In this document: one piece after another, positions 1,252 to 61,110 of the stretch
Numbering within the stretch: position 1 is the stretch's first letter
Layout of the letters: each line of letters begins with the position of its first letter
NCBI GenBank assembly: GCA_001244265.2
Contig: CDLV01000009.1
Location: 1,426,001-1,490,000 of the forward strand
Source of the DNA: Microbotryum violaceum
Taxonomy: Eukaryota
Direction: 5' to 3'
DNA: 64,000 nt
Made by a program: the position numbers and the translations under genes
The notes under the pieces: model-generated
What the model saw: the letters and a program-made list of their open reading frames with translations, nothing else
Databases searched by the model: none
Told to the model about the DNA's origin: nothing

Positions 1252-1347
1252 TGACCAGAGTGGGATTTGAACCCACGCCCTTTCGGACTAGCGAGATCAC
1301 GTAAAACAACCTGAAGCTAGCTTCTTAGACCACTCGAACATCTGGCC
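1252..1347 (-). tRNA. tRNA-Leu(CAG), intron-containing
   Basis: Acceptor stem GGCCAGA/TCTGGTC; D-arm TTCGAGTGGTCTAAGAA; anticodon stem CTAGC/GCTAG with TT-CAG-G; ~16-nt intron after position 37; long variable arm TCCGAAAGGG; T-arm GTGGGTTCAAATCCCAC; T6 Pol III terminator at 1245-1250. Confidence 0.93.
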
Positions 1348-1442: not shown

Positions 1443-7450
<6,008 letters not shown>

Positions 7451-8114
7451 ATGCTGGGTTCGACTTTCCCCCACCACCACCACACACACACACACCAAAT
7501 TCTCGTGACATCATTTTCTCCTACTGTACACTAAATAGATCGCTTTCATCTTTCATTTGTTACAGGTTCACCGTTGCGGATCATGGACCATCTCGCGATT
7601 TGGCGTCGATTCGGTGTGGCTCGCGCTCTTCGGCTTCGGGGTTCTGAGTCAAGGGAGGGATCAGCGGACACAGGCAGAAAGTCGGCTTTGAGGGGCCAGG
7701 GACTGCCGATGGGGAGGTTTTGAGGGACCTTCACCGCGTCTTGTTGTGACTGAGCAGAGACTTGGAGCGTCGAGGGTCGTGGTGGTTGCGCAGTCGTGCT
7801 CTTGTCTTCGTCTCGACCGAGTGGGAAGTGGCTGTGGGGTGGGCCTTCTGTCGTTAGTACATTTTTTTCTTTCTTTTTTTCTCTTCATCTCTCTTTCTCT
7901 CTCTCATTAGTCTCCTGGGGGGAGCAACCGCTTGGCTAGGGCATTTGAATCCGAATCTCGGATTGGTGGACTTGGCTCGTTTCTCGCACTTTTGCGGGCG
8001 GTTTGTGTTATCATCGTAGTCTTCCATCTAGTTTTTCCGTAGGCCAAAACAGGGGGAACAGGAACTGGGGCAATATGATGAACGTTTTCTACAAAAAAAA
8101 AATAAAAAAATCAC

Positions 8115-8675: not shown

Positions 8676-9017
8676 CCCCACAACTCGCGGGTCAGGGTAG
8701 TTGCGCAGTCGCTCTCCTGTCTTTGTCTCGACCGAGTTGGGAAGTGACGGCGGGGTGGGCCTCTTGTCGTTAGTAAATCGTTTTTATTACTCTGTTCTCT
8801 TTCTCTTTCTCTCTCCTTCTCTCTCTCATTCGTCTCCTGGGGGGAGCAACCGCTTGGCTAGGGCATTTGAATCCGAATCTCGGATTGGTGGACTTGGCTC
8901 GTTTCTCGCACTTTTGCGGGCGGTTTGTGTTATCATCGTAGTCTTCCATCTAGTTTTTCCGTAGGCCAAAACAGGGGGAACAGGAACTGGGGCAATATGA
9001 TGAACAAGTTCTACCAA

Positions 9018-9049
<32 letters not shown>
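8676..9049 (+). mobile_element. 5'-truncated L1 copy (3'UTR plus poly-A only)
   Basis: Homologous to ~7770-8092; 8832-9005 is identical to 7910-8083; ends in a ~31-nt poly-A. Confidence 0.9.
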
Positions 9050-9084
<35 letters not shown>

Positions 9085-9085
<1 letters not shown>

Positions 9086-9720
9086 GCCAGTACAAGTTGC
9101 TGAACATGGCTCGATCGTACACTATTCGTCGCATCCGCCGGGTCCTGAACGCGAAGGCCTTTACCAACACGCTCGGGCTCAAGGGACCACCGCAGCCGGA
9201 CGACCTCAGGAGCTTCTGGAAGGCGGTCAACTCGAAGGCACTGACGGCGAGGGAGAGGGAAGTTTGGTTCAGGCTGATTCTCCGCTTCACCCCGACGCGC
9301 AAGCTGCAACACCAACAAAATCACGACACTTCTCCCGCGTGCCTCGTCTGCGAAGCGCCGGTGGACGACACCGACCACTACTTTTTCGGCTGCGTTGACT
9401 CGCGGAACGTCTGGATCGCGGCAAGGGGCGTGCTCTGCGACGCACTCGGATGCGACACGATCTAGGACGACCAGTACACGACACTGCAACGGCTCTTTGG
9501 CCTCCCCAAGCTCAAGGCCAAGCTCAGCGAACAGAAAGGGGCGGGCAGACGATCGAGATCTTCACGGGGATGGTTTTGGAGATGATCAGCAGTGGGAGAT
9601 GGAGGATGCAGAAGCACGGGACGAGGATGGAAAGCGTGGAGAGGAAGAGGGTGGTACTGGAGGAGGGGATGAGTTGAGGGCGGGAGGAGCAAGAGGCAGG
9701 CGAGGGCAGTAGAGGCTGGG
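9085..9720 (+). pseudogene. Degenerate L1 ORF2 C-terminal fragment (related subfamily)
   Basis: YTIRRIRRVLNAKAF...CLVCEAPVDDTDHYFFGC...GRRGQ* parallels 6825-7450. In-frame TAG at 9463-9465 plus frameshifts. Similarity is cut off ~8 nt after the stop codon. Confidence 0.9.
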
Positions 9721-11469
9721 TATACTACGTTTGCTTCATAACTGCGTTGCTAAAATCTTTGGCTCGGGTGGAACCCGAACCTGACTAGCCCGTCGCTCCT
9801 TTATCAACAGCACCAAGCTACAAAAGCAGCGGAGAGACAGGGAAGGCCAAAGGCACACTCTTCTCGAGAAGCGCTGCAGCGCCCCTCAAGTTGAACAAGA
9901 GGCATCCGCCGCGAGCGATGTAAGCCTCGTCCTAACAGGTCCCGTGTTCGCCGGTGATCCCGTTTTCGACGGTGACTGACTGACTTCCCCCTTTGATGCG
10001 GACTTGTGTGCAACAGTATCTTAACCTCACAAACCAAACAAACCTGAAGCGAGCGCGTTGGAAAAGACCCCAAGCGGGTTATGTACGGCCGCTTCGGCGC
10101 GCCGAGGACAAGGAGGAGAAGAAGCAAGGCGCGGTGGGTGGCGCCATCGCCAACGGGAATGCGAATGCGGATCGACATGGGTGAAGGCACTGGAAGACCG
10201 GGTAATCGGCCATCGTGTTCTGCGTTCGATCAGCCCCTTTGTTGAGCTTGGTTGTGTCGTTTGGAACGGGCAAATAGACTTTGGAAAAATTGTCGAAACG
10301 ACTGAGGAAGTGAAGGGAGATCGCCCGCGTCGTCGTTGTCGTCATTGCATGCATGACGGGAGAGATTATGTACCTTGAGATGAACAGCCAAAAAGGAAAA
10401 GTGTGCATGGGTGTTGGTATGGCTTGAACGGCTTGTTGTGATGTATAAAAGATCTCCACGTTGACAAAGGCATACGGTATAGTAAGGATGTTTCCGGTGG
10501 TCTGACCGGAGTATGGCGCGCTCCTCTACTTCTAATTCTTCATGATGATAAAGGAAGGTATATGTTTCCCGAATACTCCCTGATCTTGGGCGTATTTGTC
10601 CGATGAGACGCCGAAGTAAAAGAAGCTGTGGGGACAGACAAGCTGTCAGTTGATCAAACCTCAAGAGGAAAGGAAGGTGCAGTGGAGGCACACACGCCGA
10701 GACATTTGCATTTGCTCCTTCGTCACCGGTGAGCTCCGCCCAGGGTATGTCATTTGGGATCGTGGTAGTGGTGCCTCCAGTGTAGAGCGGGATGTCGTAA
10801 TCGATAGCACCTATAGCATTGAGTCAACCTCAAGATCAAGTTAGCATCCAGTTTAGACATTGGTGTTTTTCTGTGGTCAGGGTCGCAGTGGCCTTTCGAC
10901 CTTTTCTGGGAGGCATCTGAAGGAGCTCACTGGTTTCCAAGTTCGTACTCCCACGGCATGTTAACCAAAGATCAGCTTTTGCAGGGGAGTGGGTCGGCAA
11001 CCACCTGTAAGTGACCGTATCGCCGGGCGGTATGTCTCGCCTCCCCAAGGATAGACGATGACGGGAAGGGTGGGAAAGGGGTAACGCGGGCGCGGATGCG
11101 AACGGGACCTTAGAGCGAGAGGGGCGACATGAGAGACGTCTCTGGTCAACGTCGAGGGGTGACGGAAGTCGGGGGTGTGTGAACCGGAGATGTTCTGCTT
11201 CGTGAAATCGGCGACTGCTTCGCTGCCAGGGGCCGGGTCGAAACTCCGGCCGTTGTCGAGCGCCTTCAGGGGCGAGGCGGTGAGGGGAGAACACGTTGCC
11301 AACTCGCTACGAGAGTGAATGCGGCCAAATGCGACCACAAGAGCAGCATGGTACGAGGCGTAGGTTCTTCACGGATGAGGTCGGATAGCAACGACTAACA
11401 AAGGGCGACTTTGATGGATGATACAAGCAAAAGGACAAGAGGCGTAACGATCCCCCGAGTCGACTCCGG

Positions 11470-11883
11470 TGTCAGGAGGAGATTTTCGTAACTGCCAGCT
11501 CTAGACTCCGCGCGCGCCCTTCCCCCGCAACCGGTGCTGTGCCCGTGTCTGCCCCTTTTCCCTTGGACTCTCGGTCAGACTCTCGCTCTCAGTCGGACTC
11601 TCGCTCTGAGACCTCTGTCGTCAGACTCTCGCTCTCAGTCGGACTCTCGCTCTGAGACCTCTGTCCTAGCTCCCCAGTTTCGTAGCTCGCTTCTCTCTTC
11701 CTTGTCTGCCCCTCAAATCTTGACAAAGGCCAGACCCTTGCTCTCGTCCCTCCTTCTCGTCGCTCTTGAGAAGTCGCCAGAACATCTCTCGACTCGTCCC
11801 GCGCCACTCGTCCTTCGTCTCGAGCCCCTTCGTCGGGCTCACACCCCTATCTTTGTCTTTCGATAGAGGGGGGAGGGGCGACA
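11470..11883. repeat. Possible solo LTR (TGTC...GACA) with an internal 46-bp tandem duplication (11574-11665); mirrored at 26094-26507
   Basis: 414 bp bounded by TGTC/GACA, pyrimidine-rich, with short hairpins. No matching TSD and no PPT. Confidence 0.3.
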
Positions 11884-12483
11884 TTTCACTGGTACAGAAA
11901 GTTGAGGTTTCCATGTTTTTTGCGGCGGAAGATCAAAACCAGTTGGGTCGCCGATTTCTTCGGGGGGGGGGCGTGTCGTGGGAAATTCGCCCCCACGCCC
12001 AGACTAAAAGCCAGTTAGTATATATTTACTATTCATCTTCATCCATAGAGATTGGCACACATGTCGTTCGGTCGGAGACGGCTCGTTGTATTACTCGGCT
12101 AACAAGAGACGACCGGACGGTTTAACAGATGGGATCGACGTGTTTCGACACTAGAAGGCAGGGGTTTCCAAGTTATCTCTCTTTCTCTCTCCGTTTCACG
12201 GTAAATTGCTCAGAAGGACGGCTCTCCACATTGAAATAAAGTCCTCTGATACTACTCTATCTAGATGCAGCATCAAACAACCGGCGACCACCACAGAACA
12301 GGAACGTGCTGTCCAACCAAATCAAAGTTCTGAGTTAACTATACTTACCTTTGCTGCCCAACCCAAATCAAATTCTGGAACTTCCACACCTCGAAAATGT
12401 GTTGACCATAAAATACGAACCCTTGATGGTCAACACTAGCCCTGGCGGATGTGGGTACGGCCGCTAGAGCGGCACCAGCACAT

Positions 12484-12984
12484 CAGGAACTTTACCACGC
12501 GCGCTTCAGAACAATCTAGAGCAATTCAGAGCCGATCTAGAACAATTCAGGCATAAAGCGCGTAAAGCGCATTCAGCCCTGCGCTGCTAGATTGCTCTAG
12601 ATTTGTCTGGAAATCCAGACATTCAGTGCGCTTCCAGAGCTTCCAGAGCATTTCCAGAGCATTTCCAGTGCATTTCAGAGCATTTCCAGAACTTTTTCAG
12701 CTTCGCTGGATAAAACTTATGGCTGTGTTTGCAATGACTACATCAGGATGTGAGCACTACTGCCTGCCGTGTGGTGCAAGACTCTGACTAGTGTGTATAA
12801 GTCCGTGACAGCGAAAACAATTCATTGCACAAGTTGCTGCTTCAGTGTGACGAAGTGGTGGATCTAGACACGATCCAGAACGATTCAGAACGATTCAGAA
12901 CGATTCAGAACGATTCAGAACGATTCAGACGGTAAAGTCATCTAGACAGATTTAGCCGCGCACCGGCAAGTGGTAAAGTTCCTG
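12484..12984. mobile_element. MITE-like non-autonomous DNA element (mirrored at 24993-25493)
   Basis: Perfect 15-bp TIRs CAGGAACTTTACCAC / GTGGTAAAGTTCCTG. Internal ~10-bp repeats (CAGAACGATT x5, TTCCAGAGCA-type). No TSD found. Confidence 0.6.
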
Positions 12985-13920
12985 GCAATACGGGGCGGCT
13001 CCGAGTCCAAGTGCTTGGAGTTGCTCCTGACTCTGAAGTAGCAGAGGGCAAAGTCAACGTACCACAGATTAGTGTCACTCTTTCAAATTTGTGGATTTCA
13101 CTCTTCACGCCTTTGGGAAATGATCTACTGACCGTAACGATGTGGCGGAGACCCGCATCCGAGTCAGTGCTCACAATATTCCTCGGCAGTTTGGCGCCCG
13201 CCGGGTGCCTGGCTCCAATCCACGCCTTATTAATCAGAGCCGGACTCCGGTAACCTCAAGGCTTCCCTGCGGAGGGCCCGGGGCGTCCGCCCATAAGAGC
13301 TTTCAAAATACGGACCAAAGAAGTGCTGGGGATCGTGAAGGCTAACATTCTGCACGTGCAAACTCCGACCAGAACCACGGCGTAAACTCGCTTACCTTCA
13401 TTGACTCTTGTTGGTCAATTCTCCCACTTCCGCAGTGGGGTCGACTCGTTGCCAGTGGGCGCCGCGAGAAGACAGTTGGTACGAACGGGCATTGCGAGCA
13501 CGATCTGAAGGTCATGCCAACGGGGGCACAATGGGGGGCTGGATGCTGTCCTCAAGATATAGAGCGACAGTCCTTCATCAGCTAAGTATAACTTGGGGTC
13601 ACCTTCGAATTCTGTAGAGCGCCCGCTGAGAGTCGGAGAATGGCGCCGAGTATCCGAGAAAGTCTCGATCAAGACACGGAGCACAACCACGGCCCCCTGA
13701 GGCTCTGAGGCACTATTCCTGTCCAATCAACTTGCCGCCTGTTCCGAAGTCCTCGTGACCCGAGCCTCTGTGTTTGTCCCCCGCCCACCGTGTTCCGAAA
13801 CTTGAAGCGATACAATTGCACATGAGTGTTTGTATGATATAGGAGAACGATCAAAGCAACAACTCGAAGCGTACTAACGATACAAAAACCTTGAAGCCCG
13901 AAAGACCAGTAAAGTGTTGC

Positions 13921-14854
13921 TCACTCCTCCATCTCAAACAACAGCCATTCCCCATCGGTATCCGCCACATTCTTCACCTCGAGTTTCCTGTCCCCCTCCT
14001 TACTGACCTCAATGAACGAAGCGTCCCCCTCCAAGACCAATCCTTCGTTCAATTTGAGAATCGCCCCACCATGATCGTATTTGTCATTCGCCGACACCGA
14101 AGGCTTGCGATACCCGAACGCATGAGGAGATGAAGGAACGCGCGTTTGGTCGTCTTGGCCATCTCGTACGAGATGGATTGGCCCGGTTCGAGGATTGAAG
14201 CATGCATCGTGATACCACTGTGAATGGGTGCAGGGCCTTGTGCGTTTCGTGAGTCGGTCACACCTTCTCGTCCTAAGGGAGCGACAACGCGGACGAGTAC
14301 GTTCGTCTTTTCCGCGTCCGTGAAGTGTCGGTTGTAGTATGCCGGTTTGAGACCCTTGGTATGAGGCATCCCCCAAATCTGAGCGAAATGAACGGGCGTC
14401 TTGGAATTACGGTTGTATTCCGAGTGCGAGATGCCGGTCCCGGTGGAGGTCATTTGGATGTCCCACGCTTCATGATCTCGAGGTTGCCGAGACTGTCGCG
14501 GTGTTCGAGTTCCCCTGAGATGATGTAGGACCAGATTTCGAACTCGCGGTGGCTGTGTTGACCAAAACCTTCACCGGGATCGACGCGGTCTTCGTTGATC
14601 ACTCGCAGGGGACCGTATTGGCTGAAGGCCGGGTCTTGGTAGGAGGCAAAGGAGACTAAGGCGAGGAATAGGAGGGGACATATCAATGTACTGCTCTCCA
14701 AGCCAGGTCTTACTGAGTTGAGTGTCTCACATGTGTGGTAAGACTTGAGCCAGCCATGATCGGCGTGGCCACGAGCGGCCGAGCGACGAGGGATGAACTT
14801 GAGCGTCGACTTGAGTTGGGAGGCAACGGCCTCGGTAGTAGCAGTAGCAGCCAT
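13921..14854 (-). pseudogene. Pirin copy in the left arm, apparently frameshifted
   Basis: Same sequence as 23118-24056 except two 1-bp G deletions in G runs (~14462, ~14115) and a 3-bp deletion (~14030). These could be consensus errors. Confidence 0.75.
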
Positions 14855-16652
14855 CTCTTGCTTGTTGTTGTTGGGAATTGCGGGTGTGTGAGGTGACAGG
14901 TTGTTGAGCTGAGTCAGGGATGTAGGTAAGAGGGAATGCGAGTCGAGGTAGACGGCGAGGAGGAGTGAACTGAGAGTGATGAGAAGGGGAAAGAGAGACG
15001 AACGAAGGAAAGCCAGCTTTTCAAGGTTGATCTAGAAGATCGTATTCGTCAACAGGTCTTCAAAAGGCAATACAGATGAGAGCTGAGTGAGGGAATGGGA
15101 TGGAAGGTGATAGAAGGAGAGATGCTTCATCGTACCGGGTGCCGTGACAGTAGTGCCGTGCCAACGTTTGACAAATTGCTCTCCCGTTCTGGCGCAGCCG
15201 TGTGGGGTTCAACGTTCGACTCCATCGTAAGAGCGCAATGCGAACCGAAATAGCTGGGATGGAGTCGGATTTGCAGCATAAGAACCAGGGATCCCGTAAC
15301 AAACGGGATGGGTTGAAAATCTACCCACGAGAGACCATAGATAAGAAAGTAAAGGAAAGAAATAGACCAACAAGGCTGTTTTTGTATTTATTTATTTTGA
15401 AGGGTGGGTGGGAGGAGACGAAGATAGAACGACTATGCTTGTAAAGCGCGATTCTATTAGTACTCGGAATACTGCAAAGACTCTGAGGACTATGGCATAC
15501 CTATGCTTGTAAAGCGTGTCGCTTGGAGACAAGAAGACAGCAAAGGAAAACAGACCTCAGACGCTGGTACGTCGAGGTTGGGTCTGTGTAGCAAGGTAGC
15601 CAAGTCAGTCAATGTGTCCAACAAGGACAGTCGAAAGCAGGAGTACCCTAAGGTAGAGCCTGAAGGTGGGTGATGTACCTCGGCTCTTTGAGCGAGACGC
15701 AGTCGAACCCGAAAGAGGCGCAGCACTGGCAGGTATCGCTGGGGGGGGGGGTCCTGTGAGAAGCTCGGAACCTGTCAGCCAATTGGCGGCAGGAAGAGTT
15801 CAAGGAAGGCCACTGACCTTGGCAGGAGGGAAACAGAGAGTCATGTGCCACGCTGCTTTGATGGGAAATGGAACCTCGGCGAACGTAGGCTGAAACCGCG
15901 CTAGCTAGCTGGGCCCGGGGATCAAAGCAGCGTGGCACATGACTCTCTGTTTCCCAGACCACTGGTTTTGCGTGCCTGCCACATTGTAGTGTAGTCCCTT
16001 CAACCATCCGTGACGTCATCAGCAGCTCTCGGTCCAGCGCGTCCCCCGGCCCAGCTAGCTAGCGCGGTTTTAGCAGGGGTCGGCCAGTGATAGCCCGTTT
16101 CCTCTACGTTCGCCGAGGTTCCATTTTCCATCAAATCAATGACTCTGGCTCAGACGACCTGTCTTGCGTGTCTACCACATCGTAGCGTAGTTACTTCGAG
16201 CATCTACTTCCTGCCACTGTCGAAATGTCATCTGTAAACTTTCACGTACAGAAGACTCTCCACTACGAATCTTCATGGAGAGGACAGGGGCAGCCGAGAC
16301 GTCGCCAATGTGAGCGAGGTCAGCGCGCCGTCCGCGAGGCTGAGAGGGCCGCCAACGAGGCTGCTTCGCGCTGTGTGCAAAGGGGGAGGAAATCATTATG
16401 AGGAGCAGCGCAGTGAGCAAACGAAGATACCGAGTAGAAGAGGATAGGGAACGTTAAGGGAAAAGAGAGGGTGAGCCGCGCTAGTCGCTGCCTCGGGTAA
16501 TCTAAGTCAGAATCTAAAGAGGTCCGAGCGCGCCCGAGTTCCCATCTCCCAATCTCCGTATGCTGGAGTTGAGAGCCCCCCTGCAATGTAGTGTACACGA
16601 TGACAATCATCAGCCCAGACCTCGCGCATGAGGATAGTAAAAACTTGAATGT

Positions 16653-19600
16653 ATGGATGCCCGCCGCCTTCGCGCTCCTCCGCCCAACCCGACTTCCGCT
16701 CTAATCACACAGACGCCGCCGCCAACAACCGCTGCAACTGCCGACATGTCATCTGCTAACTTCCATGTGCCCTTTCCTCAACAACAACCTTCACGTAGAG
16801 CACAGGGGCAGCAAAGACGTCGGCAACGTGAGCGAGCTGAGCGCGCCGCCCGCGAGGCTGCAGGCGCCCCTCCGCACAACCCGACTCCCGCTCTAATCGC
16901 ACAGACGCCGCCACCAATCGATCAACGCGACGTCGCGCAAAATGGATCGTCGAGTCGATCTGCACAGGCAGCCGGCACTCCCAATGTCGCCCGGCAAATG
17001 CGACGTGCCCGCAGTCCTTCACCTCCTGGCTTGAGATTCGTTCGTCCACGCTTTGAAGCATCCAGACCTCTCTCGCGTCGCCGGTTCGAGTACAGACGCA
17101 ACTACGACTTCAGCCACTACTGTCGTCGAACAACGATCCGCGGCGCAGCGTCAACGACGCCAACGCGAAAGAGGGCGATCGAGCCAGTCCGTCCCAACTG
17201 CGCTGCTGCCGTTGCCGGAAGGACCTTTTCCCCGGCACGACCTTGGATCAATGACGTTGCAGTGTCCGATCTGTTCGGCTCTACACTGGGAGTTCGAAAA
17301 ATCACCAACCCGAGGCGGCGCCACACCGTTCAAACTCTGTTGCACGAACGGCAAAGTTCGATTGCCCGGGATCGAAAAACCCCCGCCCGAGCTGCTCGAG
17401 CTCCTGACTGGCGATGGCCCAGGTTAGTACACGTCGAATCGTTCAACTTGCTAGAATGAGTACAGCGGACTAACGGCCTCGCTGACTATCCGTGAAACAG
17501 TTGAGAAGATTTTTCGGGACCGCATTCTTGCATTCAACGAAAGCTTTGCTATGGCATCATTCGGCACGAGCAAAGGTCATGGCATCATCAGCGGCGCCGG
17601 ACCGCCATCTTGCTACCTGAGCGGAACGGTTTTTCACCGTATCGGCACGCTGGCACCAGGCCCAGCAGACGACCCCGTCTTTGCCCAGATTCTCTTCCTG
17701 GCTCCGACTGAACGCATCGAAGCCCGACGGAGATTCAACGGACCGCCTGAAGAGGTTCGACGTCTGGACTCGGCGTATCAGCAGATCGTTCCTGTACTCG
17801 ACGGCATGCTGCGAGTCCATAACAGACGCGTCAAACTGTTCCTAACGGCAAAAGAATTCATGAACAGTGAAACGTCTCACATGTACAAGCTCCGCTTACT
17901 TGCACCGCGCAATCGAGACCCGAGAACGTACAACTTGCCGACGCAAGAGGAGGTGGCCGTCATACTACCCGGAGACGAGACCAAGTACCGATCTTCAAGA
18001 AGAGAGATCGTCGTGCGGTTACGTCACCCGCCAAACAATGACAGCCGCGGAATTCAGCTCATTCACGATGGTCACCCTGCACTCATGGCACTCACATACC
18101 CGCTATTGTTACCGTATGGCGAAGACTGGTACCACGACGGAATCCCCCTCAGCCAAAACGCTATCGCAACAGAGGCAGCTCGGCGTGTGCGAGACGAAAA
18201 CGGTGTATTGCAGCGCACAACAGATGACGCCAACGCCAACCCGCAAACCGGAACGGCCGGATCCAAACGTGTGACACAGAGCCAATTCAACCCGTATTAC
18301 TTCCATATTCATCCTCACAATATCAGTTACCCGACGCTGTTCCTAGGAGGGCGGTTGTTCCAGAAACTTGGCGCGGATGCCTGGGCAGTGACTGAACAAG
18401 AACGGCTATATTGGATGAGAGCGAATCAGAAGAAGCTCAGAGCCGAAGAGTATTCGTCCCTTCAAGCAAGCCTGGCTGAAGGACTCGATCCCGCGCAGAT
18501 CGGCAAAAGAGTCATTCTACCGTCCTCACACACCGGATCGCCACGCCAAATGGTCCAACTTTACCAAGATGCTATGGCCATTGTTCGTGTTTTTGGTGCT
18601 CCGGACATATTCATCAAAATGACATGCAACCCTGCCTGGTCGGAAATCGTCAACGCTTTGCTTCCTGGCCAAACCGCATCCGACCGTCCCGACATAGTAG
18701 CACGGGTCTTTCACGGTAAATTGAAAGCTCTTTTGGCGGATGTATTAGGCGTTGGTCGTGCGCCGGGAGTCTTTGGAAAGGTATGTCATCGACGCGGTGA
18801 ATCAAAATGAATAAGATGCTCATGAGTCTCAATCTTTGCACAGGTCATCGCATATGTCTATGTTGTCGAATTTCAAAAGCGCGGACTGCCTCACGCCCAC
18901 ATCTTTTGATCATGGACCCAGAAGACAAACCAAAAACAAATGACGACTACGACAAGATAGTCACCGCAGAAATACCGGACCGCGACAAATTTCCCGCATT
19001 GTTTGAGACCATCACAAACACCATGCTACACCGGCGATGTGATTGTCCCGGCAAGCATATCTGCCACGACGACCATGGAAAATGTACCAAACGGTTTCCC
19101 AAACGACTCCAACCGCGCACGACCAGCGAAGACGGTGGCTATCCACACTACCGGCGTCGCGGCATACACCAATATGTCAAATTCGCGGGCACAGCGCAAG
19201 AAGAAGTTTATACGGATGCAAATGTTGTTCCAACAAATCCGTTCCTTGCGTCCAAGTACAACTGTCATGTCAACGTGGAAATCGCAAGCGGCGTTGCTGC
19301 GATCAAGTACCTGTACAAGTACGTTTACAAGGGCCACGACCGTACTTCATTCACGATCGACGATCCCGAAGCTCAAGACGAAATCAACAACTTCCTTGAC
19401 GCTCGATATGTTTGTGCCCCCGAAGCCATTCACCGGATATTTCGATTCGGTATGCATGATCGAGATCCCGCCGTGGCCAGACTTGCGCTGCACCTCCCGA
19501 ATGAGCAACAAGTTCGGTTCGACCCAGATCACGGAGCACCGGATTTGTCAGCGCCACCGGAAACGACGTTAACCGCCTTCATCAAATTGTGCGCCAAGAC

Positions 19601-21854
19601 GCCGCCCGATCACAACGCACGAAATCTGCTTTACGTCGACGTGCCGACCCGTTTCACATGGAACAACGAAGATCGTACTTGGGTTCCACGAAAACGTGAC
19701 AACCGGACAATCGGAAGAATTTACTTTTGTGGTCTTGAAGGCGGAGAGCGATGCTACTTGCGGCTACTCCTTCTCAAGGTGCCTTCTCCGACATCGTTTG
19801 CGGATCTGAAGACTTTCAATGGTGTCGAGTTTCGAGCATTCCGGGAAGCCTGTGTCGAACGGGGGCTCCTACGCAACGACGCTGAAGCCGACAGATGTCT
19901 GACCGAGGCAGCGGTCTTCCGTACTGGCCACGAGCTGCGACACCTGTTTGCCATACTGTTAACGGCCGATGATGGAGTCACAAACGCGGCGCAGTTATGG
20001 ACAAGGCACTATGACAACCTCACCCAAGGCGTCGAATACCAGCTACGAAACCAAAGACCGCAGCCGATCATCACACCCGAGCATGTAGCCACCTGGGGGC
20101 TGCTACAGCTCAGCAATATTCTGCAACGACTCGACTCCTCATTGTCAGACCACGGCCTGCTGCTGCCAACGATTCAGTTCGATGACGAAGCTTCAACAAA
20201 TCGTCTCATCATGGAGGAATCAGCCACAGCAGCAGAACTCGACAAATTGGAGGGTATCTGGAGGAACAACTTCGAGTTGTGCAACGCCGAACAACGCGTT
20301 GTTGTTGAGACAGTTCTTGACTCGATTCTGAACAGCCGCGGAAAAGTCTTTTTCATTGATGCTCCAGGAGGGACAGGCAAAACGTTCTTGGAGAAAACGA
20401 TCCTTGCTCGGATTCGCTCAGAGGGAAAATACGCTCTTGCCGTTGCATCATCGGGTATTGCTGCACTGCTACTGCCAAAAGGCAGAACGGCACATTCACG
20501 GTTCAAGATCCCGATCGACATCTTCGACGACTCTACGTGCAATATTCCAAAACAAGGACAGCTCGCCGAGCTTTTTCGGATGTGCGACTTGATCGTCTGG
20601 GACGAGGCACCGATGCAGCACCGTCGATGTTTCCAGCTGGTGGACAGGATGTTGCAAGATGTGCGATCGTCAACGGCTCAGTTTGGTGGACTGACCGTCG
20701 TGTTGGCAGGTGTGTGTTAATCTTTCAACAGCACAGCGCAGGGCAGCATGAGTAACTGACCAGTTGGACTGTGACATCACAGGGGATCCGAAGCAATGCC
20801 TTCGCGTTATTTCCAAGTCATCGCCGGCACAAATTGTCGACGCTTGCATCATGAATGCTGACTTCTGGGGGGAAGTTGAGGTGCTGCATCTCTCTGTAAA
20901 TAGTAATCCTTTCTTGACTTTCAGACCCTATACTAACCACGGCACGGTGCAAGCACAGACAAACATGCGTCTTCTGGCCGCTGCAGACCGCATGACCGAA
21001 ACGGAACGGGAAAAGGCACAGGACTTTGCAAATTGGCTCTTGGGAGTTGGAGACGGCTCGGCGAACAAAACAGAAGACTCTATCGCGCTCCCGCGTGAGC
21101 TTCTCCTGCCGGCAACCACGAGGAACAGATCCGGCTTGATCAGACACGTATATCCCGTCCCCGCCTTCGAACTCAACAACATGTCAATTGGCGCAAAAAT
21201 CGAATATTTCCGAAATCGCGCAATTCTGGCGCCCAAGAACTCGCAGGTGGATCAAATAAACGACATGGTGCTCGACCTGCTGCCGGGAGAACCTCAGACA
21301 TTCTACAGCGCGGATTCGGTCGAAAACGAAGACGAATCACTATTTTCGATCGAGTATCTTCAGAGCCTCAACATCCCCGGGATGGCGTTGCACGCTGCAA
21401 AATTCAAAGTGGGATGTCCCGTTATGCTCCTCAGAAACTTGGACCCCGCCGCGGGGCTGTGCAAGGGCACAAGACTGTTGTCAATTCGGTTACACACCCG
21501 CGTGCTCGAGGCCATCATTCTCGGGGAGATCATGCTGGACAGCCCGTTTTGCTGCCACGGATAACGCTGAAGACAGGGTCATCAGCTGAGCTTCCGTTCA
21601 CTCTGCACCGGACGCAGTTTCCGATTCGGCTCGCAATGGCTATGACGATCAACAAGTCGCAAGGCCAGTCACTCGCGCAGGTGGGAGTCTGTCTGGAGAC
21701 GCCCGTCTTTTCTCACGGCCAGTTGTACGTCGCATTGTCTCGAGCAACGAATGTGGATGGTGTCAGAGTTTTGCTTCATCAGACAGAGAATGAAGAAGCA
21801 GACAATGTAACAGAAAACATCGTCTTTAGAATGGTTTTTGAGTTGATGAAATGA
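16653..21854 (+). CDS. Helitron Rep-helicase (zinc finger, Helitron_like_N/HUH Rep, PIF1 helicase), intron-containing, with frameshifts
   Basis: CPICSALHW...CCTNGKV; Rep motifs [34 protein letters not shown]; helicase motifs [61 protein letters not shown]. Introns ~17424-17500, 18781-18843, 20711-20782, ~20896-20959. Frameshifts near 17100, 18905 and 21525. Confidence 0.95.
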
Positions 21855-22057
21855 AGAGTTATGTCAAAGCTCCATAGTGAAGCTCCGCCAATTCCAATTA
21901 GCAGGTGAGGGATGGCGATGTCGGGAGGCTTCCATGAGAAGGTCCACACTCGACGCGGGTCTCGACGACGGTCTCAGCCCATCCTCGGGCTCCCAGAAAA
22001 CAAAAAAAGAGTTCAGTGATGAAATGAAGGCTCTGTACATTTGATCGTCATCGCGCC

Positions 22058-25000
22058 GGCCCAGCTAGCTAGCGCGGTTTCAGCCTACGTTCGCCGAGGT
22101 TCCATTTCCCATCAAAGCAGCGTGGCACATGACTCTCTGTTTCCCTCCTGCCAAGGTCAGTGGCCTTCCTTGAACTCTTCCTGCCGCCAATTGGCTGACA
22201 GGTTCCGAGCTTCTCACAGGACCCCCCCCCCAGCGATACCTGCCAGTGCTGCGCCTCTTTCGGGTTCGACTGCGTCTCGCTCAAAGAGCCGAGGTACATC
22301 ACCCACCTTCAGGCTCTACCTTAGGGTACTCCTGCTTTCGACTGTCCTTGTTGGACACATTGACTGACTTGGCTACCTTGCTACACAGACCCAACCTCGA
22401 CGTACCAGCGTCTGAGGTCTGTTTTCCTTTGCTGTCTTCTTGTCTCCAAGCGACACGCTTTACAAGCATAGGTATGCCATAGTCCTCAGAGTCTTTGCAG
22501 TATTCCGAGTACTAATAGAATCGCGCTTTACAAGCATAGTCGTTCTATCTTCGTCTCCTCCCACCCACCCTTCAAAATAAATAAATACAAAAACAGCCTT
22601 GTTGGTCTATTTCTTTCCTTTACTTTCTTATCTATGGTCTCTCGTGGGTAGATTTTCAACCCATCCCGTTTGTTACGGGATCCCTGGTTCTTATGCTGCA
22701 AATCCGACTCCATCCCAGCTATTTCGGTTCGCATTGCGCTCTTACGATGGAGTCGAACGTTGAACCCCACACGGCTGCGCCAGAACGGGAGAGCAATTTG
22801 TCAAACGTTGGCACGGCACTACTGTCACGGCACCCGGTACGATGAAGCATCTCTCCTTCTATCACCTTCCATCCCATTCCCTCACTCAGCTCTCATCTGT
22901 ATTGCCTTTTGAAGACCTGTTGACGAATACGATCTTCTAGATCAACCTTGAAAAGCTGGCTTTCCTTCGTTCGTCTCTCTTTCCCCTTCTCATCACTCTC
23001 AGTTCACTCCTCCTCGCCGTCTACCTCGACTCGCATTCCCTCTTACCTACATCCCTGACTCAGCTCAACAACCTGTCACCTCACACACCCGCAATTCCCA
23101 ACAACAACAAGCAAGAGATGGCTGCTACTGCTACTACCGAGGCCGTTGCCTCCCAACTCAAGTCGACGCTCAAGTTCATCCCTCGTCGCTCGGCCGCTCG
23201 TGGCCACGCCGATCATGGCTGGCTCAAGTCTTACCACACATGTGAGACACTCAACTCAGTAAGACCTGGCTTGGAGAGCAGTACATTGATATGTCCCCTC
23301 CTATTCCTCGCCTTAGTCTCCTTTGCCTCCTACCAAGACCCGGCCTTCAGCCAATACGGTCCCCTGCGAGTGATCAACGAAGACCGCGTCGATCCCGGTG
23401 AAGGTTTTGGTCAACACAGCCACCGCGAGTTCGAAATCTGGTCCTACATCATCTCAGGGGAACTCGAACACCGCGACAGTCTCGGCAACCTCGAGATCAT
23501 GAAGCGTGGGGACATCCAAATGACCTCCACCGGGACCGGCATCTCGCACTCGGAATACAACCGTAATTCCAAGACGCCCGTTCATTTCGCTCAGATTTGG
23601 GGGATGCCTCATACCAAGGGTCTCAAACCGGCATACTACAACCGACACTTCACGGACGCGGAAAAGACGAACGTACTCGTCCGCGTTGTCGCTCCCTTAG
23701 GACGAGAAGGTGTGACCGACTCACGAAACGCACAAGGCCCTGCACCCATTCACAGTGGTATCACGATGCATGCTTCAATCCTCGAACCGGGCCAATCCAT
23801 CTCGTACGAGATGGCCAAGACGACCAAACGCGCGTTCCTTCATCTCCTCATGCGTTCGGGGTATCGCAAGCCTTCGGTGTCGGCGAATGACAAATACGAT
23901 CATGGTGGGGCGATTCTCAAATTGAACGAAGGATTGGTCTTGGAGGAGGGGGACGCTTCGTTCATTGAGGTCAGTAAGGAGGGGGACAGGAAACTCGAGG
24001 TGAAGAATGTGGCGGATACCGATGGGGAATGGCTGTTGTTTGAGATGGAGGAGTGAGCAACACTTTACTGGTCTTTCGGGCTTCAAGGTTTTTGTATCGT
24101 TAGTACGCTTCGAGTTGTTGCTTTGATCGTTCTCCTATATCATACAAACACTCATGTGCAATTGTATCGCTTCAAGTTTCGGAACACGGTGGGCGGGGGA
24201 CAAACACAGAGGCTCGGGTCACGAGGACTTCGGAACAGGCGGCAAGTTGATTGGACAGGAATAGTGCCTCAGAGCCTCAGGGGGCCGTGGTTGTGCTCCG
24301 TGTCTTGATCGAGACTTTCTCGGATACTCGGCGCCATTCTCCGACTCTCAGCGGGCGCTCTACAGAATTCGAAGGTGACCCCAAGTTATACTTAGCTGAT
24401 GAAGGACTGTCGCTCTATATCTTGAGGACAGCATCCAGCCCCCCATTGTGCCCCCGTTGGCATGACCTTCAGATCGTGCTCGCAATGCCCGTTCGTACCA
24501 ACTGTCTTCTCGCGGCGCCCACTGGCAACGAGTCGACCCCACTGCGGAAGTGGGAGAATTGACCAACAAGAGTCAATGAAGGTAAGCGAGTTTACGCCGT
24601 GGTTCTGGTCGGAGTTTGCACGTGCAGAATGTTAGCCTTCACGATCCCCAGCACTTCTTTGGTCCGTATTTTGAAAGCTCTTATGGGCGGACGCCCCGGG
24701 CCCTCCGCAGGGAAGCCTTGAGGTTACCGGAGTCCGGCTCTGATTAATAAGGCGTGGATTGGAGCCAGGCACCCGGCGGGCGCCAAACTGCCGAGGAATA
24801 TTGTGAGCACTGACTCGGATGCGGGTCTCCGCCACATCGTTACGGTCAGTAGATCATTTCCCAAAGGCGTGAAGAGTGAAATCCACAAATTTGAAAGAGT
24901 GACACTAATCTGTGGTACGTTGACTTTGCCCTCTGCTACTTCAGAGTCAGGAGCAACTCCAAGCACTTGGACTCGGAGCCGCCCCGTATTGCCAGGAACT

Positions 25001-27910
25001 TTACCACTTGCCGGTGCGCGGCTAAATCTGTCTAGATGACTTTACCGTCTGAATCGTTCTGAATCGTTCTGAATCGTTCTGAATCGTTCTGAATCGTTCT
25101 GGATCGTGTCTAGATCCACCACTTCGTCACACTGAAGCAGCAACTTGTGCAATGAATTGTTTTCGCTGTCACGGACTTATACACACTAGTCAGAGTCTTG
25201 CACCACACGGCAGGCAGTAGTGCTCACATCCTGATGTAGTCATTGCAAACACAGCCATAAGTTTTATCCAGCGAAGCTGAAAAAGTTCTGGAAATGCTCT
25301 GAAATGCACTGGAAATGCTCTGGAAATGCTCTGGAAGCTCTGGAAGCGCACTGAATGTCTGGATTTCCAGACAAATCTAGAGCAATCTAGCAGCGCAGGG
25401 CTGAATGCGCTTTACGCGCTTTATGCCTGAATTGTTCTAGATCGGCTCTGAATTGCTCTAGATTGTTCTGAAGCGCGCGTGGTAAAGTTCCTGATGTGCT
25501 GGTGCCGCTCTAGCGGCCGTACCCACATCCGCCAGGGCTAGTGTTGACCATCAAGGGTTCGTATTTTATGGTCAACACATTTTCGAGGTGTGGAAGTTCC
25601 AGAATTTGATTTGGGTTGGGCAGCAAAGGTAAGTATAGTTAACTCAGAACTTTGATTTGGTTGGACAGCACGTTCCTGTTCTGTGGTGGTCGCCGGTTGT
25701 TTGATGCTGCATCTAGATAGAGTAGTATCAGAGGACTTTATTTCAATGTGGAGAGCCGTCCTTCTGAGCAATTTACCGTGAAACGGAGAGAGAAAGAGAG
25801 ATAACTTGGAAACCCCTGCCTTCTAGTGTCGAAACACGTCGATCCCATCTGTTAAACCGTCCGGTCGTCTCTTGTTAGCCGAGTAATACAACGAGCCGTC
25901 TCCGACCGAACGACATGTGTGCCAATCTCTATGGATGAAGATGAATAGTAAATATATACTAACTGGCTTTTAGTCTGGGCGTGGGGGCGAATTTCCCACG
26001 ACACGCCCCCCCCCCGAAGAAATCGGCGACCCAACTGGTTTTGATCTTCCGCCGCAAAAAACATGGAAACCTCAACTTTCTGTACCAGTGAAATGTCGCC
26101 CCTCCCCCCCTCTATCGAAAGACAAAGATAGGGGTGTGAGCCCGACGAAGGGGCTCGAGACGAAGGACGAGTGGCGCGGGACGAGTCGAGAGATGTTCTG
26201 GCGACTTCTCAAGAGCGACGAGAAGGAGGGACGAGAGCAAGGGTCTGGCCTTTGTCAAGATTTGAGGGGCAGACAAGGAAGAGAGAAGCGAGCTACGAAA
26301 CTGGGGAGCTAGGACAGAGGTCTCAGAGCGAGAGTCCGACTGAGAGCGAGAGTCTGACGACAGAGGTCTCAGAGCGAGAGTCCGACTGAGAGCGAGAGTC
26401 TGACCGAGAGTCCAAGGGAAAAGGGGCAGACACGGGCACAGCACCGGTTGCGGGGAAGGGCGCGCGCGGAGTCTAGAGCTGGCAGTTACGAAAATCTCCT
26501 CCTGACACCGGAGTCGACTCGGGGGATCGTTACGCCTCTTGTCCTTTTGCTTGTATCATCCATCAAAGTCGCCCTTTGTTAGTCGTTGCTATCCGACCTC
26601 ATCCGTGAAGAACCTACGCCTCGTACCATGCTGCTCTTGTGGTCGCATTTGGCCGCATTCACTCTCGTAGCGAGTTGGCAACGTGTTCTCCCCTCACCGC
26701 CTCGCCCCTGAAGGCGCTCGACAACGGCCGGAGTTTCGACCCGGCCCCTGGCAGCGAAGCAGTCGCCGATTTCACGAAGCAGAACATCTCCGGTTCACAC
26801 ACCCCCGACTTCCGTCACCCCTCGACGTTGACCAGAGACGTCTCTCATGTCGCCCCTCTCGCTCTAAGGTCCCGTTCGCATCCGCGCCCGCGTTACCCCT
26901 TTCCCACCCTTCCCGTCATCGTCTATCCTTGGGGAGGCGAGACATACCGCCCCGGCGATACGGTCACTTACAGGTGGTTGCCGACCCACTCCCCTGCAAA
27001 AGCTGATCTTTGGTTAACATGCCGTGGGAGTACGAACTTGGAAACCAGTGAGCTCCTTCAGATGCCTCCCAGAAAAGGTCGAAAGGCCACTGCGACCCTG
27101 ACCACAGAAAAACACCAATGTCTAAACTGGATGCTAACTTGATCTTGAGGTTGACTCAATGCTATAGGTGCTATCGATTACGACATCCCGCTCTACACTG
27201 GAGGCACCACTACCACGATCCCAAATGACATACCCTGGGCGGAGCTCACCGGTGACGAAGGAGCAAATGCAAATGTCTCGGCGTGTGTGCCTCCACTGCA
27301 CCTTCCTTTCCTCTTGAGGTTTGATCAACTGACAGCTTGTCTGTCCCCACAGCTTCTTTTACTTCGGCGTCTCATCGGACAAATACGCCCAAGATCAGGG
27401 AGTATTCGGGAAACATATACCTTCCTTTATCATCATGAAGAATTAGAAGTAGAGGAGCGCGCCATACTCCGGTCAGACCACCGGAAACATCCTTACTATA
27501 CCGTATGCCTTTGTCAACGTGGAGATCTTTTATACATCACAACAAGCCGTTCAAGCCATACCAACACCCATGCACACTTTTCCTTTTTGGCTGTTCATCT
27601 CAAGGTACATAATCTCTCCCGTCATGCATGCAATGACGACAACGACGACGCGGGCGATCTCCCTTCACTTCCTCAGTCGTTTCGACAATTTTTCCAAAGT
27701 CTATTTGCCCGTTCCAAACGACACAACCAAGCTCAACAAAGGGGGCTGATCGAACGCAGAACACGATGGCCGATTACCCGGTCTTCCAGTGCCTTCACCC
27801 ATGTCGATCCGCATTCGCATTCCCGTTGGCGATGGCGCCACCCACCGCGCCTTGCTTCTTCTCCTCCTTGTCCTCGGGCGCGCCGAAGCGGCCGTACATA
27901 ACCCGCTTGG
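22058..27910 (+). repeat. Right arm of the 5.85 kb inverted repeat
   Basis: Reverse complement of 10070-15915; starts GGCCCAGCTAGCTAGCGCGG and ends ACCCGCTTGG. Confidence 0.97.
23118..24056 (+). CDS. Pirin-family bicupin (YhhW-like, putative quercetin 2,3-dioxygenase)
   Basis: [20 protein letters not shown] after removing the 75-nt intron 23242-23316; [42 protein letters not shown], QIW. Metal-binding His/Glu residues present. Confidence 0.95.
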   Translation: [312 protein letters not shown]

Positions 27911-28639
27911 CCCTTCCCAACGCATCCAGTTGATCGGTCTATGAGGTCGAACGACTGTTGACTCCATGTCCGCATCAGAAGACTGAAAACGCGCTCATTT
28001 TTACTCGACTCCAACTCTCGCCTGCGACACCTCTTGCAATTCATCACATGCGGAGCCACTTGCGATGTCGCACCTGCGTCGACAGCCCATGTGCCCCCCC
28101 CCCCCCCCCCCCCGGCCTTTCCGATGCAACTCGGTAGAGAGCTCGAGAGGAACCGAGCGAGTTGAGTTTGTGGGGTGAGATTGAACGAGCTCGGCACGTT
28201 TGCCACGATATCGTGCCAAAAATATCGTGCCAGAAATTATCTGCAAATCGCTTTGGCGTAAGACCGTACGGAGCCCTCGGGTCGAAATTGCGTATAACCA
28301 GTAGGTCAAGCTTACTACAGGCTGTTGCGGTCGGTTGGAAATGGAACCCGCGGGCGTCGAACAGAGGAGCCGGACTCCAGGCACATCGATCGGACCCTGC
28401 TCGTGTCTCGGTCGTTGGTTCGCCTTCACTTCCTGATGACAGGCGTGTTCTTCGCCTGCGGCCCTTGTGTAGAATCTGTTTTGCTCCGTAGCTGAAAGGT
28501 AGAGCAGTCCGACGTACATCAGTTCTCAAACTCATCCCTCAAGCTCTTCTCAGCTTGAGCTCCATCGCTAGTACTCACCAGGCCGACTCCGCTCCCTTCA
28601 CCCCTTACTCTTCCCACCTGAATCTCGCCTTCTCCACTC

Positions 28640-29026
28640 TCAGTCATACTCCCCCTCCTTCCCCAACGCACTCATCTCCCACCCCTCATGACCCCGTCTT
28701 CCTCCCTCAAACCCCAATCCCAGATTTCGAACCGCGGTATACTCCCCCCGACTGGTTGAAGAATTTGAGCGAGGATGACGTGGACTGGGATCGGGGTCGA
28801 GGCCGAAGAAAGAGCGGAGGAGATGGAGTATGGACGGACCCATACAGGTCGCTTCGTGGCGGAGGAGTGGGGCGGGAGGCAGGGGGCAGAAGGAAGGGGT
28901 CAGTTCAAGTGGCTGAGGATACGGGATTGAGTGGGGTGGGGGGAGCTTACATAGTAGTATGAACACGATCCATGCGGCGAAGAATATGCAGAGGAAGATG
29001 ATCATCCTGAACAGGGACGAGTCCAT
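28640..29026 (-). CDS. Small (~95 aa) predicted single-pass membrane protein, divergent from VPS41
   Basis: ATG 29026; hydrophobic MIIFLCIFFAAWIVFILL; 99-nt intron 28950-28852 (GTAAGC...CTGAC...AAG) keeps the frame; stop at 28640. Confidence 0.5.
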   Translation of the reverse strand: MDSSLFRMIIFLCIFFAAWIVFILLCKLPPPHSIPYPQPLELTPSFCPLPPAPLLRHEATCMGPSILHLLRSFFGLDPDPSPRHPRSNSSTSRGEYTAVRNLGLGFEGGRRGHEGWEMSALGKEGEYD

Positions 29027-29240
29027 CGTGAATGCTGATGAGAGCTGGGAGTGAGATCACGAGAGCGGAAGGAGGAAGGAGGCGGAAGATGTAGGAAGAG
29101 GTGAACCCGACGACGATCGACGCTCTTGCGCGGCGCCCGTTCTTTGCCCTTCTGCCTTTCCCCCCCCTGACCCGACGTCACGTGCTTCTTCGTCCCAAGG
29201 CGGGAAAAGGAAGGCGTGTTCATCACGTAGGGAGTGAGCT

Positions 29241-60521: not shown

Positions 60522-61110
60522 TTTATTTATTTATTTGATAGACTTCATTAACAGCATAATTATATTAATACCTAGAAATCTTCGGAAAAGTCGGAGGGAA
60601 TGCTGTTACGCACACTGGCAGAAGCCAGTAGTGTAGGACTGATTGACCAATTGAGGCTCGAAGCCCCTCGAACTCCGTTTCGGTGATCGGTTCCAAAAGA
60701 TCCGACGAGAATCGACGACGGCGACAGAGCTTCCAGATCGAGTGAAAGAAAAGGACTCGTAGTTCGACAAGTCGACGTTCCGAGCGAGACACGACCGGGC
60801 ATACAAAGTCCACAAAGACTGGGTGGGGGTCGAGGACAGAGCAGACCAGAGGCGCCGGGCAAATGGGCAGCCGACCGCGAGGTGAACCAGGCACTCGGGT
60901 GCTTCCGAGAGGCACATCACACAGGAGGTAGATCGATTGTTGGGATGTGGGCTGGTTGGGGAGGCGACTTGGCTTCCCGGATGGAGGGACCCCAGGGAGA
61001 GAAGGTGGCCGGTATCCTCGGCGTCCGAGTGAACCCGGCGAACCTTGCGCAAAGCCTTCCACCAAGCATTCCAGCGTTGCTCAGGCAGATCGAATACCTC
61101 GCGCGCCGCT
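60522..61110 (-). mobile_element. 5'-truncated LINE (zf-RVT region, 3'UTR, (TAAA)n tail) nested in the Harbinger element
   Basis: WNAWWKAL...CVMCLSEAPECLVHLAVGCPFARRLW...SIWKLCRRRRF. Tail reads TTTATTTATTTATTT at 60522-60536 on the + strand. Confidence 0.8.

Follow-up and report, generated by a model that had tools for sequence, protein, structure and literature searches.

A stretch of 64,000 nucleotides from Microbotryum violaceum (assembly GCA_001244265.2, contig CDLV01000009.1, positions 1,426,001 to 1,490,000 of the forward strand), referred to below as the window, contained a palindrome in which two inverted arms, each carrying a pirin gene, enclosed a Helitron transposon with its Rep-helicase (RepHel) gene. 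The coordinates of all features were collected in Table 1. Near-identical inverted arms of 5.85 kb had been claimed in a preliminary description of the sequence, and this was borne out by self-BLAST of the window, which gave one alignment (10070-15915 against 27910-22058) with 5855 columns, 0 mismatches and 9 gap openings. A repeat search of the window resolved the same arrangement, between 10102-15915 and 22058-27877, into 8 collinear inverted blocks with a complementarity of 99-100%. When the two arms were aligned with each other by MAFFT, all 9 differences proved to be indels, the longest of 3 nt (CCT) and the other eight of a single nucleotide, and every one of them was located in or beside a short C/G run. 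The inverted arms were not attributable to chance, because the other self-matches in the rest of the 64-kb window did not exceed about 640 nt. The spacer between the arms was 6.1 kb long and had no second copy inside the window; its body belonged genome-wide to a multi-copy transposon family, as judged by contig depth. The contig evidence, here and below, was taken from the Logan contigs of four public short-read runs (X15, X1, X9 and X11, from more than one study) over 8990-28989. An exact 46-bp tandem duplication was also present in each arm, at 11574-11665 and 26313-26404.

The RepHel gene that had been proposed for the spacer was confirmed on the plus strand by the Pfam families Helitron_like_N (E 2.6e-44), PIF1 (E 1.5e-52), Pif1_2B and UvrD_C_2. 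A Rep domain with both the HUH and the two-tyrosine motif was followed by a fused PIF1-type helicase, which is the composition of an autonomous Helitron. In tblastn, a 1470-aa Microbotryum Helitron protein covered 17068-21851, and the region was collinear with the 1470-aa and a 1740-aa (P0244) RepHel protein of M. silenes-dioicae at up to 90% identity. With P0245 and P0244 as tblastn queries, one intron of about 64 nt and two frame changes, near 18897-18906 and within 21375-21558, were revealed in the gene. Every contig placed there carried an additional C after 18902, which coincided with the first frame change, and from this sequence comparison the change near 18900 may be an assembly error. 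The protein search with RepHel returned, within Microbotryum, matches from M. silenes-dioicae only, none of them beside the locus tags of pirin or VPS41. Microbotryum genomes are known for their richness in Helitrons. In the excerpts available of the two genome papers, M. lychnidis-dioicae was reported to hold 373 Helitron copies, making up 10% of transposon space (PMC4469406), and M. intermedium almost no Helitrons, 0.04% of base pairs (PMC10502011). An internal duplication of about 520 bp with 77-91% identity was noticed in the 5' region of the Helitron (16211-16342/16732-16860 and 16672-16725/16864-16917). Ranked by contig depth within the element, the bin 16327-16993 came second in three runs and third in X11, after 20329-20995, a pattern that points to numerous short derivatives with these parts in common. 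A further observation concerned an arm stretch at 26138-26242 (+), mirrored at 11736-11840 (-), whose 35 residues were 74% identical to residues 76-110 of P0244, at a place in that protein between parts matching the spacer Helitron; either P0244 holds a captured piece of such sequence, or both carry a small unrelated repeat.

An outward-pointing pirin gene was verified in each arm. The window matched proteins of M. silenes-dioicae exactly, and the protein of the right copy had an exact match on record and orthologues in three other Microbotryum species. The indels that interrupt the left copy are probably consensus errors, because the contigs over the mirrored sites showed the right-arm spelling only, and the genome now probably holds two intact, divergently oriented pirin genes. 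A neighbourhood of SNF7, pirin and VPS41 had been described in advance, of which the VPS41 part was retained: the VPS41 fragment in the right flank was 100% identical to an M. silenes-dioicae entry, and the pirin and VPS41 locus tags were two apart in M. intermedium and eight apart in M. saponariae. The SNF7 gene, by contrast, could not be found. Among 24 open reading frames (ORFs) of the arm and near flank, pirin alone was matched at Pfam E <= 0.01, two matches at E 0.04-0.07 were far under the family cut-offs, and a minus-strand three-frame reading of 25900-27930 for SNF7/ESCRT-III showed nothing ESCRT-like. The codon-usage scan of 24057-29237 gave a single short coding-like ORF, at 27798-27938 (-). 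Upstream of the propeller part of VPS41, the frame 29238-30026 (+) contained a long acidic D/E-repeat run, presumably an N-terminal extension in the genus.

Table 1. Features of the palindromic locus and its surroundings, in positions of the window
Feature	Position	Strand	Description
LINE-like retrotransposon (LINE, long interspersed nuclear element)	3373..7450	+	Left flank; Pfam RVT_1, zf-RVT
Left outer flank	9991..10069		Inverted similarity, diverged, to 27911-27981; belongs to a dispersed repeat
Left arm	10070..15915	-	Reverse complement of the right arm; probably the derived copy
Pirin, left copy	13921..14854	-	As assembled, broken by indels at 14027, 14112 and 14461
Mirror of Helitron 3'-terminal module	15828..15915	-	Inner end of the left arm
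Single-copy spacer	15916..22057	+	5 extra bases, 35-bp Helitron-end copy, 193-bp mini unit, autonomous Helitron body
Helitron-end copy	15921..15955	+	35 bp; exact repeat of the last 35 bp before 22146
Mini Helitron-like unit	15956..16148	+	193 bp; 5' start and diverged 3' module; read by eye
Putative autonomous Helitron unit	16149..22145	+	About 6.0 kb; last 88 bp inside the right arm
RepHel coding region	16752..21851	+	HUH motif LPHAHI, two-tyrosine YLYKYVYKG, PIF1 helicase domain
Right arm	22058..27910	+	Probably parental; holds Helitron 3' module, pirin and 3.85 kb without recognisable genes
Helitron 3'-terminal module	22058..22145	+	88 bp, right arm; starts with a 23-nt motif holding the palindrome GCTAGCTAGC
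Pirin, right copy	23118..24056	+	Open frame, 312 codons; Pfam Pirin E 4.5e-23
Right outer flank	27911..27981		Diverged inverted counterpart of 9991-10069
VPS41 start	29238..31319	+	Right flank; Pfam Beta-prop_Vps41 E 2.4e-82; propeller part 30027-31319

The inner limits of the arms were compared with the ends of the Helitron. A Helitron 5' start motif was identified at 15956 and recurred in diverged form at 16149, each time after end-like sequence. The motif of 23-29 nt with its 10-nt perfect palindrome was present at 16046-16074 and 22056-22084 and in mirror form at 15889-15915, and a diverged copy of the 88-bp module occupied 16046-16148. Loose contig ends showed that other genomic copies of the Helitron part from the window at position 22143 and at its mirror, 15830. 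Judged from these sequences, a 35-bp end remnant, the 193-bp mini unit and the 6.0-kb autonomous unit would form a head-to-tail row, and the last 88 bp of the apparent 3' end of the Helitron appear to be included in both arms. The inner arm boundary was the first base of the 88-bp module, within 2 nt, and a perfect palindrome was located 6-15 nt from the inner junction. The right inner junction is continuous, the Helitron body passing straight into its 3' module. The left one had 4-5 bases (15916-15920) that matched neither side, and no more than 2 nt of further identity. A 35-bp perfect hairpin, formed by 15921-15955 and 15828-15862 with a 58-nt loop, extended across this junction; its folding energy was -49 kcal/mol (z -10.6), and 0 of 200 shuffles were as stable.

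At the outer limits, about 79 bp of roughly 72% inverted similarity were detected between the two flanks. The local alignment of 9991-10041 with 27981-27930 had a score of 30, which was reached by 0 of 2000 shuffles and by 5 of 2000 real-sequence controls, and the last 15 nt before the outer boundary looked alike on both sides by eye. A long low-identity flank match, which appeared under lenient alignment, was rejected as compositional and the stricter alignment was kept. No target-site duplication was found at the outer ends, where the flanks GGAAAAGACC and CCCTTCCCAA were not direct repeats. The left arm joined ordinary LINE-rich flank at 10069/10070, with no terminal deletion, and the event was interstitial. 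A dispersed repeat of about 6 copies was continuous over the left outer arm boundary (9635-10227), with about 6x contig depth and 24 mismatches. No Pfam family was matched by the repeat at this junction, and when 9700-10400 was compared with the LINE copies and with the remainder of the window, nothing significant emerged beyond the known 9702-9721 overlap, the best scores otherwise staying within the range of shuffles.

Whether the second arm exists in the genome was evaluated by the depth of arm-unique contigs (22724-23756, 23740-25022, 26016-26342 and about 27131-27607) relative to a flank contig of the same run. All of these arm-unique contigs had been placed on the right arm. The arm contigs reached 1.7-2.8x the flank depth in three of the four runs: 26.3, 27.9, 17.1 and 25.8 against 9.84 in X15, 43.9, 40.3, 34.6 and 48.4 against 17.1 in X1, and 40.2, 45.2 and 39.6 against 20.3 in X9. 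The result for X11 was ambiguous (11.7, 7.23 and 15.9 against 6.45, ratios 1.1-2.5). The depth check that had been called for over the arms thus gave, at contig level, about twice the flank depth in three runs, and therefore the inverted duplication is probably real. The spelling at the arm indels was compared in the same contigs. Contigs of all four runs, gap-free in X15, showed the right-arm spelling at four indel sites out of nine (23511, 23861, 23949 and 26110), and at the indel sites checked the left-arm spelling was in no contig of the four runs. The window also differed from the X9 flank contig (27881-28987) by 12 gaps in 1107 nt. Since the contigs carried the right-arm spelling only and the window contained so many gaps, the nine arm indels are probably long-read consensus errors and both arms identical. 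The C run at 22224-22235 was shorter in the contigs than in the window. Contig joints (for example 15209 to 23727, and a 544-nt skip at 12467-13012 / 24965-25510) and the uncovered parts of the arms were left unused.

The absence of substitutions between the arms was considered together with the differences between strains. The arm contigs of X1 differed from the window at 8 of 3341 nt and those of X9 at 5 of 2313 nt, both at about 2x depth; one X9 contig with 14 differences in 507 nt was excluded as a likely paralogue. If the duplication were shared by descent, about 13 arm-to-arm differences would be expected, and none was seen, which points to gene conversion between the arms. This is a lead, drawn from depth and from contigs that can hide variants, and the arms may be either very young or kept identical by conversion. 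Large palindromes of primate sex chromosomes have near-identical arms that are kept alike by arm-to-arm gene conversion. The present locus resembles them in its multi-kb arms of >99.9% identity, its unique spacer, the genes in its arms and its possible concerted evolution. Differently, it is much smaller and is located in an autosome-like, gene-rich fungal stretch, and a possible conversion was read here only from contig depth and few strain differences. RIP-like mutation (repeat-induced point mutation) at TCG has been described for Microbotryum genomes in the excerpt of PMC10502011; with 0 substitutions, no RIP-like change was present in the arms.

From the repeat, the gene content, the breakpoint positions and the roughly twofold depth, all of them observed, we infer an order of events, a parental arm, a repair pathway and gene conversion. 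On balance, the palindrome probably originated as an interstitial inverted duplication by fold-back or template-switch repair, with the Helitron left as the single-copy spacer. The right arm is probably the parental copy, because the pirin and VPS41 tags are two apart in M. intermedium, which is nearly Helitron-free. At the beginning, a Helitron consisting of the tandem mini and autonomous units would have entered the neighbourhood of VPS41, some 970 bp upstream of the host pirin gene. Next, the DNA would have broken, or a fork stalled, at the 5' side of the Helitron or close to it, and repair would have used the wrong template, with a 3' end starting synthesis on the opposite strand 88 bp inside the Helitron 3' end, beside the 10-nt palindrome. 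Synthesis would thus have run through 5.85 kb of host DNA downstream, pirin among it, and yielded a copy in reverse orientation, which would finally be rejoined to the other broken side via the short diverged repeat with the similarity of about 79 bp. The reverse order would fit just as well: invasion would begin at the repeat, and end-joining at the Helitron would close the process. A route in two steps is conceivable too, in which a solo Helitron end first folded back tightly and the 6.19-kb tandem unit then inserted at precisely that end, but it needs one extra event.

Several observations weigh against this explanation or against the duplication on which it depends. The roughly twofold contig depth is not equal to a copy number and was measured from a baseline of one flank contig per run. 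No contig spanned a whole arm, neither inner junction had a bridging contig among the rows listed, and the left outer junction was bridged only by contigs of the repeat family of about 6 copies, with 24 mismatches in about 593 nt, so that the left outer junction of the window itself is unconfirmed by contigs. The X9 flank contig ended at 27881, 30 nt into the arm and under the 31-nt bridging rule, and this 30-nt reach could stem from the repeat family rather than from a second arm. The repeat family was continuous over the left outer boundary, and the left junction could be older. Classical fold-back ends in a terminal deletion, whereas the locus is interstitial and needs a second switch. Junction microhomology is countable only against a pre-duplication allele. 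The termini of the Helitron were non-canonical: the canonical CTRR was absent from the apparent 3' end (22143-22145), and the last 131 nt, in which a 3' hairpin was sought, folded no better than shuffles (z +1.26). These ends were placed from one locus and a few loose contig ends, and they belong either to a variant family or to misplaced termini.

Among the alternatives, a direct action of the Helitron enzyme is doubtful. In that case RepHel would nick at 15955/15956 or at the 3' end, and the resulting break, or a transfer to the wrong strand at the palindromic CTAG-containing motif, would mirror the 3' flank onto the 5' side. It is in agreement with this that the left inner breakpoint (15915/15916) was about 40 nt from the putative junction of 3' end and 5' start, the presumed RepHel cut site, that the right inner breakpoint coincided with the first base of the module, next to GCTAGCTAGC, a sequence identical on both strands, and that the RepHel gene was nearly intact, with its HUH and tyrosine motifs kept. 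The 35-aa arm stretch that resembles the protein of another Helitron (26138-26242) would likewise mean that exchange between Helitrons and sequence of this kind has taken place. However, the breakpoints were 88 and 35-40 nt away from the putative cleavage sites, the outer arm end at 27880-27910 was by eye unlike a Helitron 3' end and so offered no pseudo-terminator, the filler bases and the homeology resembled host repair, and no such Helitron product was found in a full-text literature search. A direct RepHel role is possible but is required by no observation, and ordinary fold-back or template-switch repair gives the same anatomy. A fuller version, in which the Helitron makes the palindrome, is unlikely: the RepHel cut at the head-to-tail junction would leave a one-ended break, and the palindromic CTAG-rich module would let the end switch strands and mirror the flanking host DNA, a whole gene and its promoter included, onto the other side of the element. 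If true, Helitrons would have a means of their own for doubling entire genes in place of capturing fragments, and the arms would undergo concerted evolution and might invert the transposon between them. It is quite unlikely that the palindrome is an assembly artefact, in which one arm of the genome was laid down twice in opposite orientations by the long-read assembler. Zero substitutions with homopolymer-type indels only would be produced by two consensus passes over one locus, the assembly did contain many indel errors (the 12 gaps noted above), and the left outer junction of the window was in no contig listed; but the arm contigs were at 1.7-2.8x flank depth in three of four runs from more than one study, and within one uninterrupted stretch of 64 kb the arms have different unique flanks. 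Palindromes that come from chimeric fold-back reads lack a 6-kb spacer, which also counts against an artefact.

An ancient origin, with a palindrome reaching at least 9991 and 27981 whose inner 5.85 kb were kept identical by conversion while the outer 79 bp or so decayed, is decidedly unlikely, and it competes only with the recent-event half of the explanation by repair. The step from 100% to about 72% identity at the outer boundary would suit it, as would the strains that were about 0.2% off the window in the arms and still at about 2x depth. On the other side, a divergence of 28% would predate the species splits, the similarity ended after about 79 bp, and no RIP-like C-to-T changes were present in the arms. 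One pirin sequence each was recorded for M. saponariae, M. intermedium and M. lychnidis-dioicae (90% cluster), which is weak evidence against an old duplication in that identical copies collapse. Very improbable, finally, is the giant composite mobile element ending in 5.85-kb inverted arms that the preliminary description had offered as one possibility. Its shape, long inverted ends around a transposon gene, was all that spoke for it. There was no target-site duplication (GGAAAAGACC versus CCCTTCCCAA), the arm-unique contigs were two-copy rather than multi-copy at about 2x depth, and RepHel, the sole transposase-like gene, belongs to a class of enzyme that does not act on terminal inverted repeats. 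Moreover, the arms held a conserved host gene in its usual neighbourhood, with pirin near VPS41 also in the almost Helitron-free M. intermedium. The earlier interpretation therefore stood in the layout of arms, pirin and RepHel, and in a link to the Helitron that goes beyond adjacency through the 88-bp end in both arms, while the composite element and SNF7 were given up.

Inverted duplication by fold-back or template-switch repair was further compared with known systems. Helitron-captured DNA is normally inside the element, in the same orientation, and moved to a new site. Ordinary capture was ruled out for the locus, where the copy was inverted and outside the element on its 5' side. The locus is like gene capture or 3' read-through transduction in that host DNA 3' of a Helitron was duplicated together with Helitron terminal sequence, and unlike them in that the copy took only 88 bp of the Helitron plus a complete gene with its flanks. 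Origin-dependent inverted-repeat amplification (ODIRA) yields three copies, the middle one inverted, and needs an origin within the unit. The inverted triplication of ODIRA was ruled out by the two copies in the window and by a contig depth of about 2x rather than 3x. What the locus has in common with ODIRA, a template switch between leading and lagging strands outlined in the excerpt of PMC10766183, is short palindromic or inverted switch points at a fork, here the 10-nt palindrome and the 35-bp inverted pair 58 nt apart. Closer parallels were provided by the human germline fold-back cases of Hermetz et al. 2014 (PMC3907307), which in the excerpt available also had inverted copies around a non-duplicated spacer of kilobases, of 766-70,466 bp (median 3,428) against 6.1 kb here. 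The junctions in the same excerpt of PMC3907307 showed 2-8 bp of inverted microhomology, insertions, or hybrid repeats. Like those cases, the locus combines a natural junction with a novel one, at which there appears to be little or no homology, or a few bases are inserted; repeats served hybrid junctions in some of the human cases. The human duplications in that excerpt (PMC3907307) were terminal, with deletion plus a new telomere or a translocation, and megabases long, whereas the locus is interstitial, has arms of 5.85 kb, would have been rejoined via a short diverged repeat and contains a transposon as its spacer.

As it stands, the locus is a further case of a known rearrangement class, the repeat-anchored inverted segmental duplication of the fold-back type; unusual are the Helitron as spacer and the inner breakpoint in the Helitron terminal module. 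As a natural inverted duplication of the interstitial type in a fungus, it is a clean example resolved at sequence level, and both of its breakpoints can be read. The position of the inner breakpoint in the terminal module suggests that rolling-circle transposons may seed whole-gene duplications via break repair and not via capture. Pirin and its upstream region were doubled in a genus that mutates repeats, yet the copies were free of substitutions, and the rates of RIP-like mutation and of conversion between the arms could be studied at this locus. If the explanation by enzyme action were true, a new product would be added to the Helitron repertoire. The full-text literature search returned no account of a Helitron-centred palindrome or of this locus, although supplementary tables (for example those of PMC5967549) may list the duplicated gene; recent gene gains by duplication near repeats were described for these species in the excerpt of PMC5967549.

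The remaining parts of the window differed on the two sides of the palindrome. The left flank was transposon-rich, and the right flank contained genes for VPS41, aldehyde dehydrogenase, CLN3, a GH3 glycosidase and STIMATE. Partial, non-collinear repeats of the 3' half of the LINE-like retrotransposon, with 78-90% identity, were found at 7770-8110, 8685-9034 and 9088-9721, and the contig depth over 8990-9656 was at least 50-fold that of the flank. A tRNA gene was detected at 1252-1347 (-) by Rfam RF00005 (46.4 bits); its span of 96 nt possibly contains an intron. Between ordinary genes, a 128-bp dispersed direct repeat with 83% identity was located at 37244-37370 and 60522-60648.

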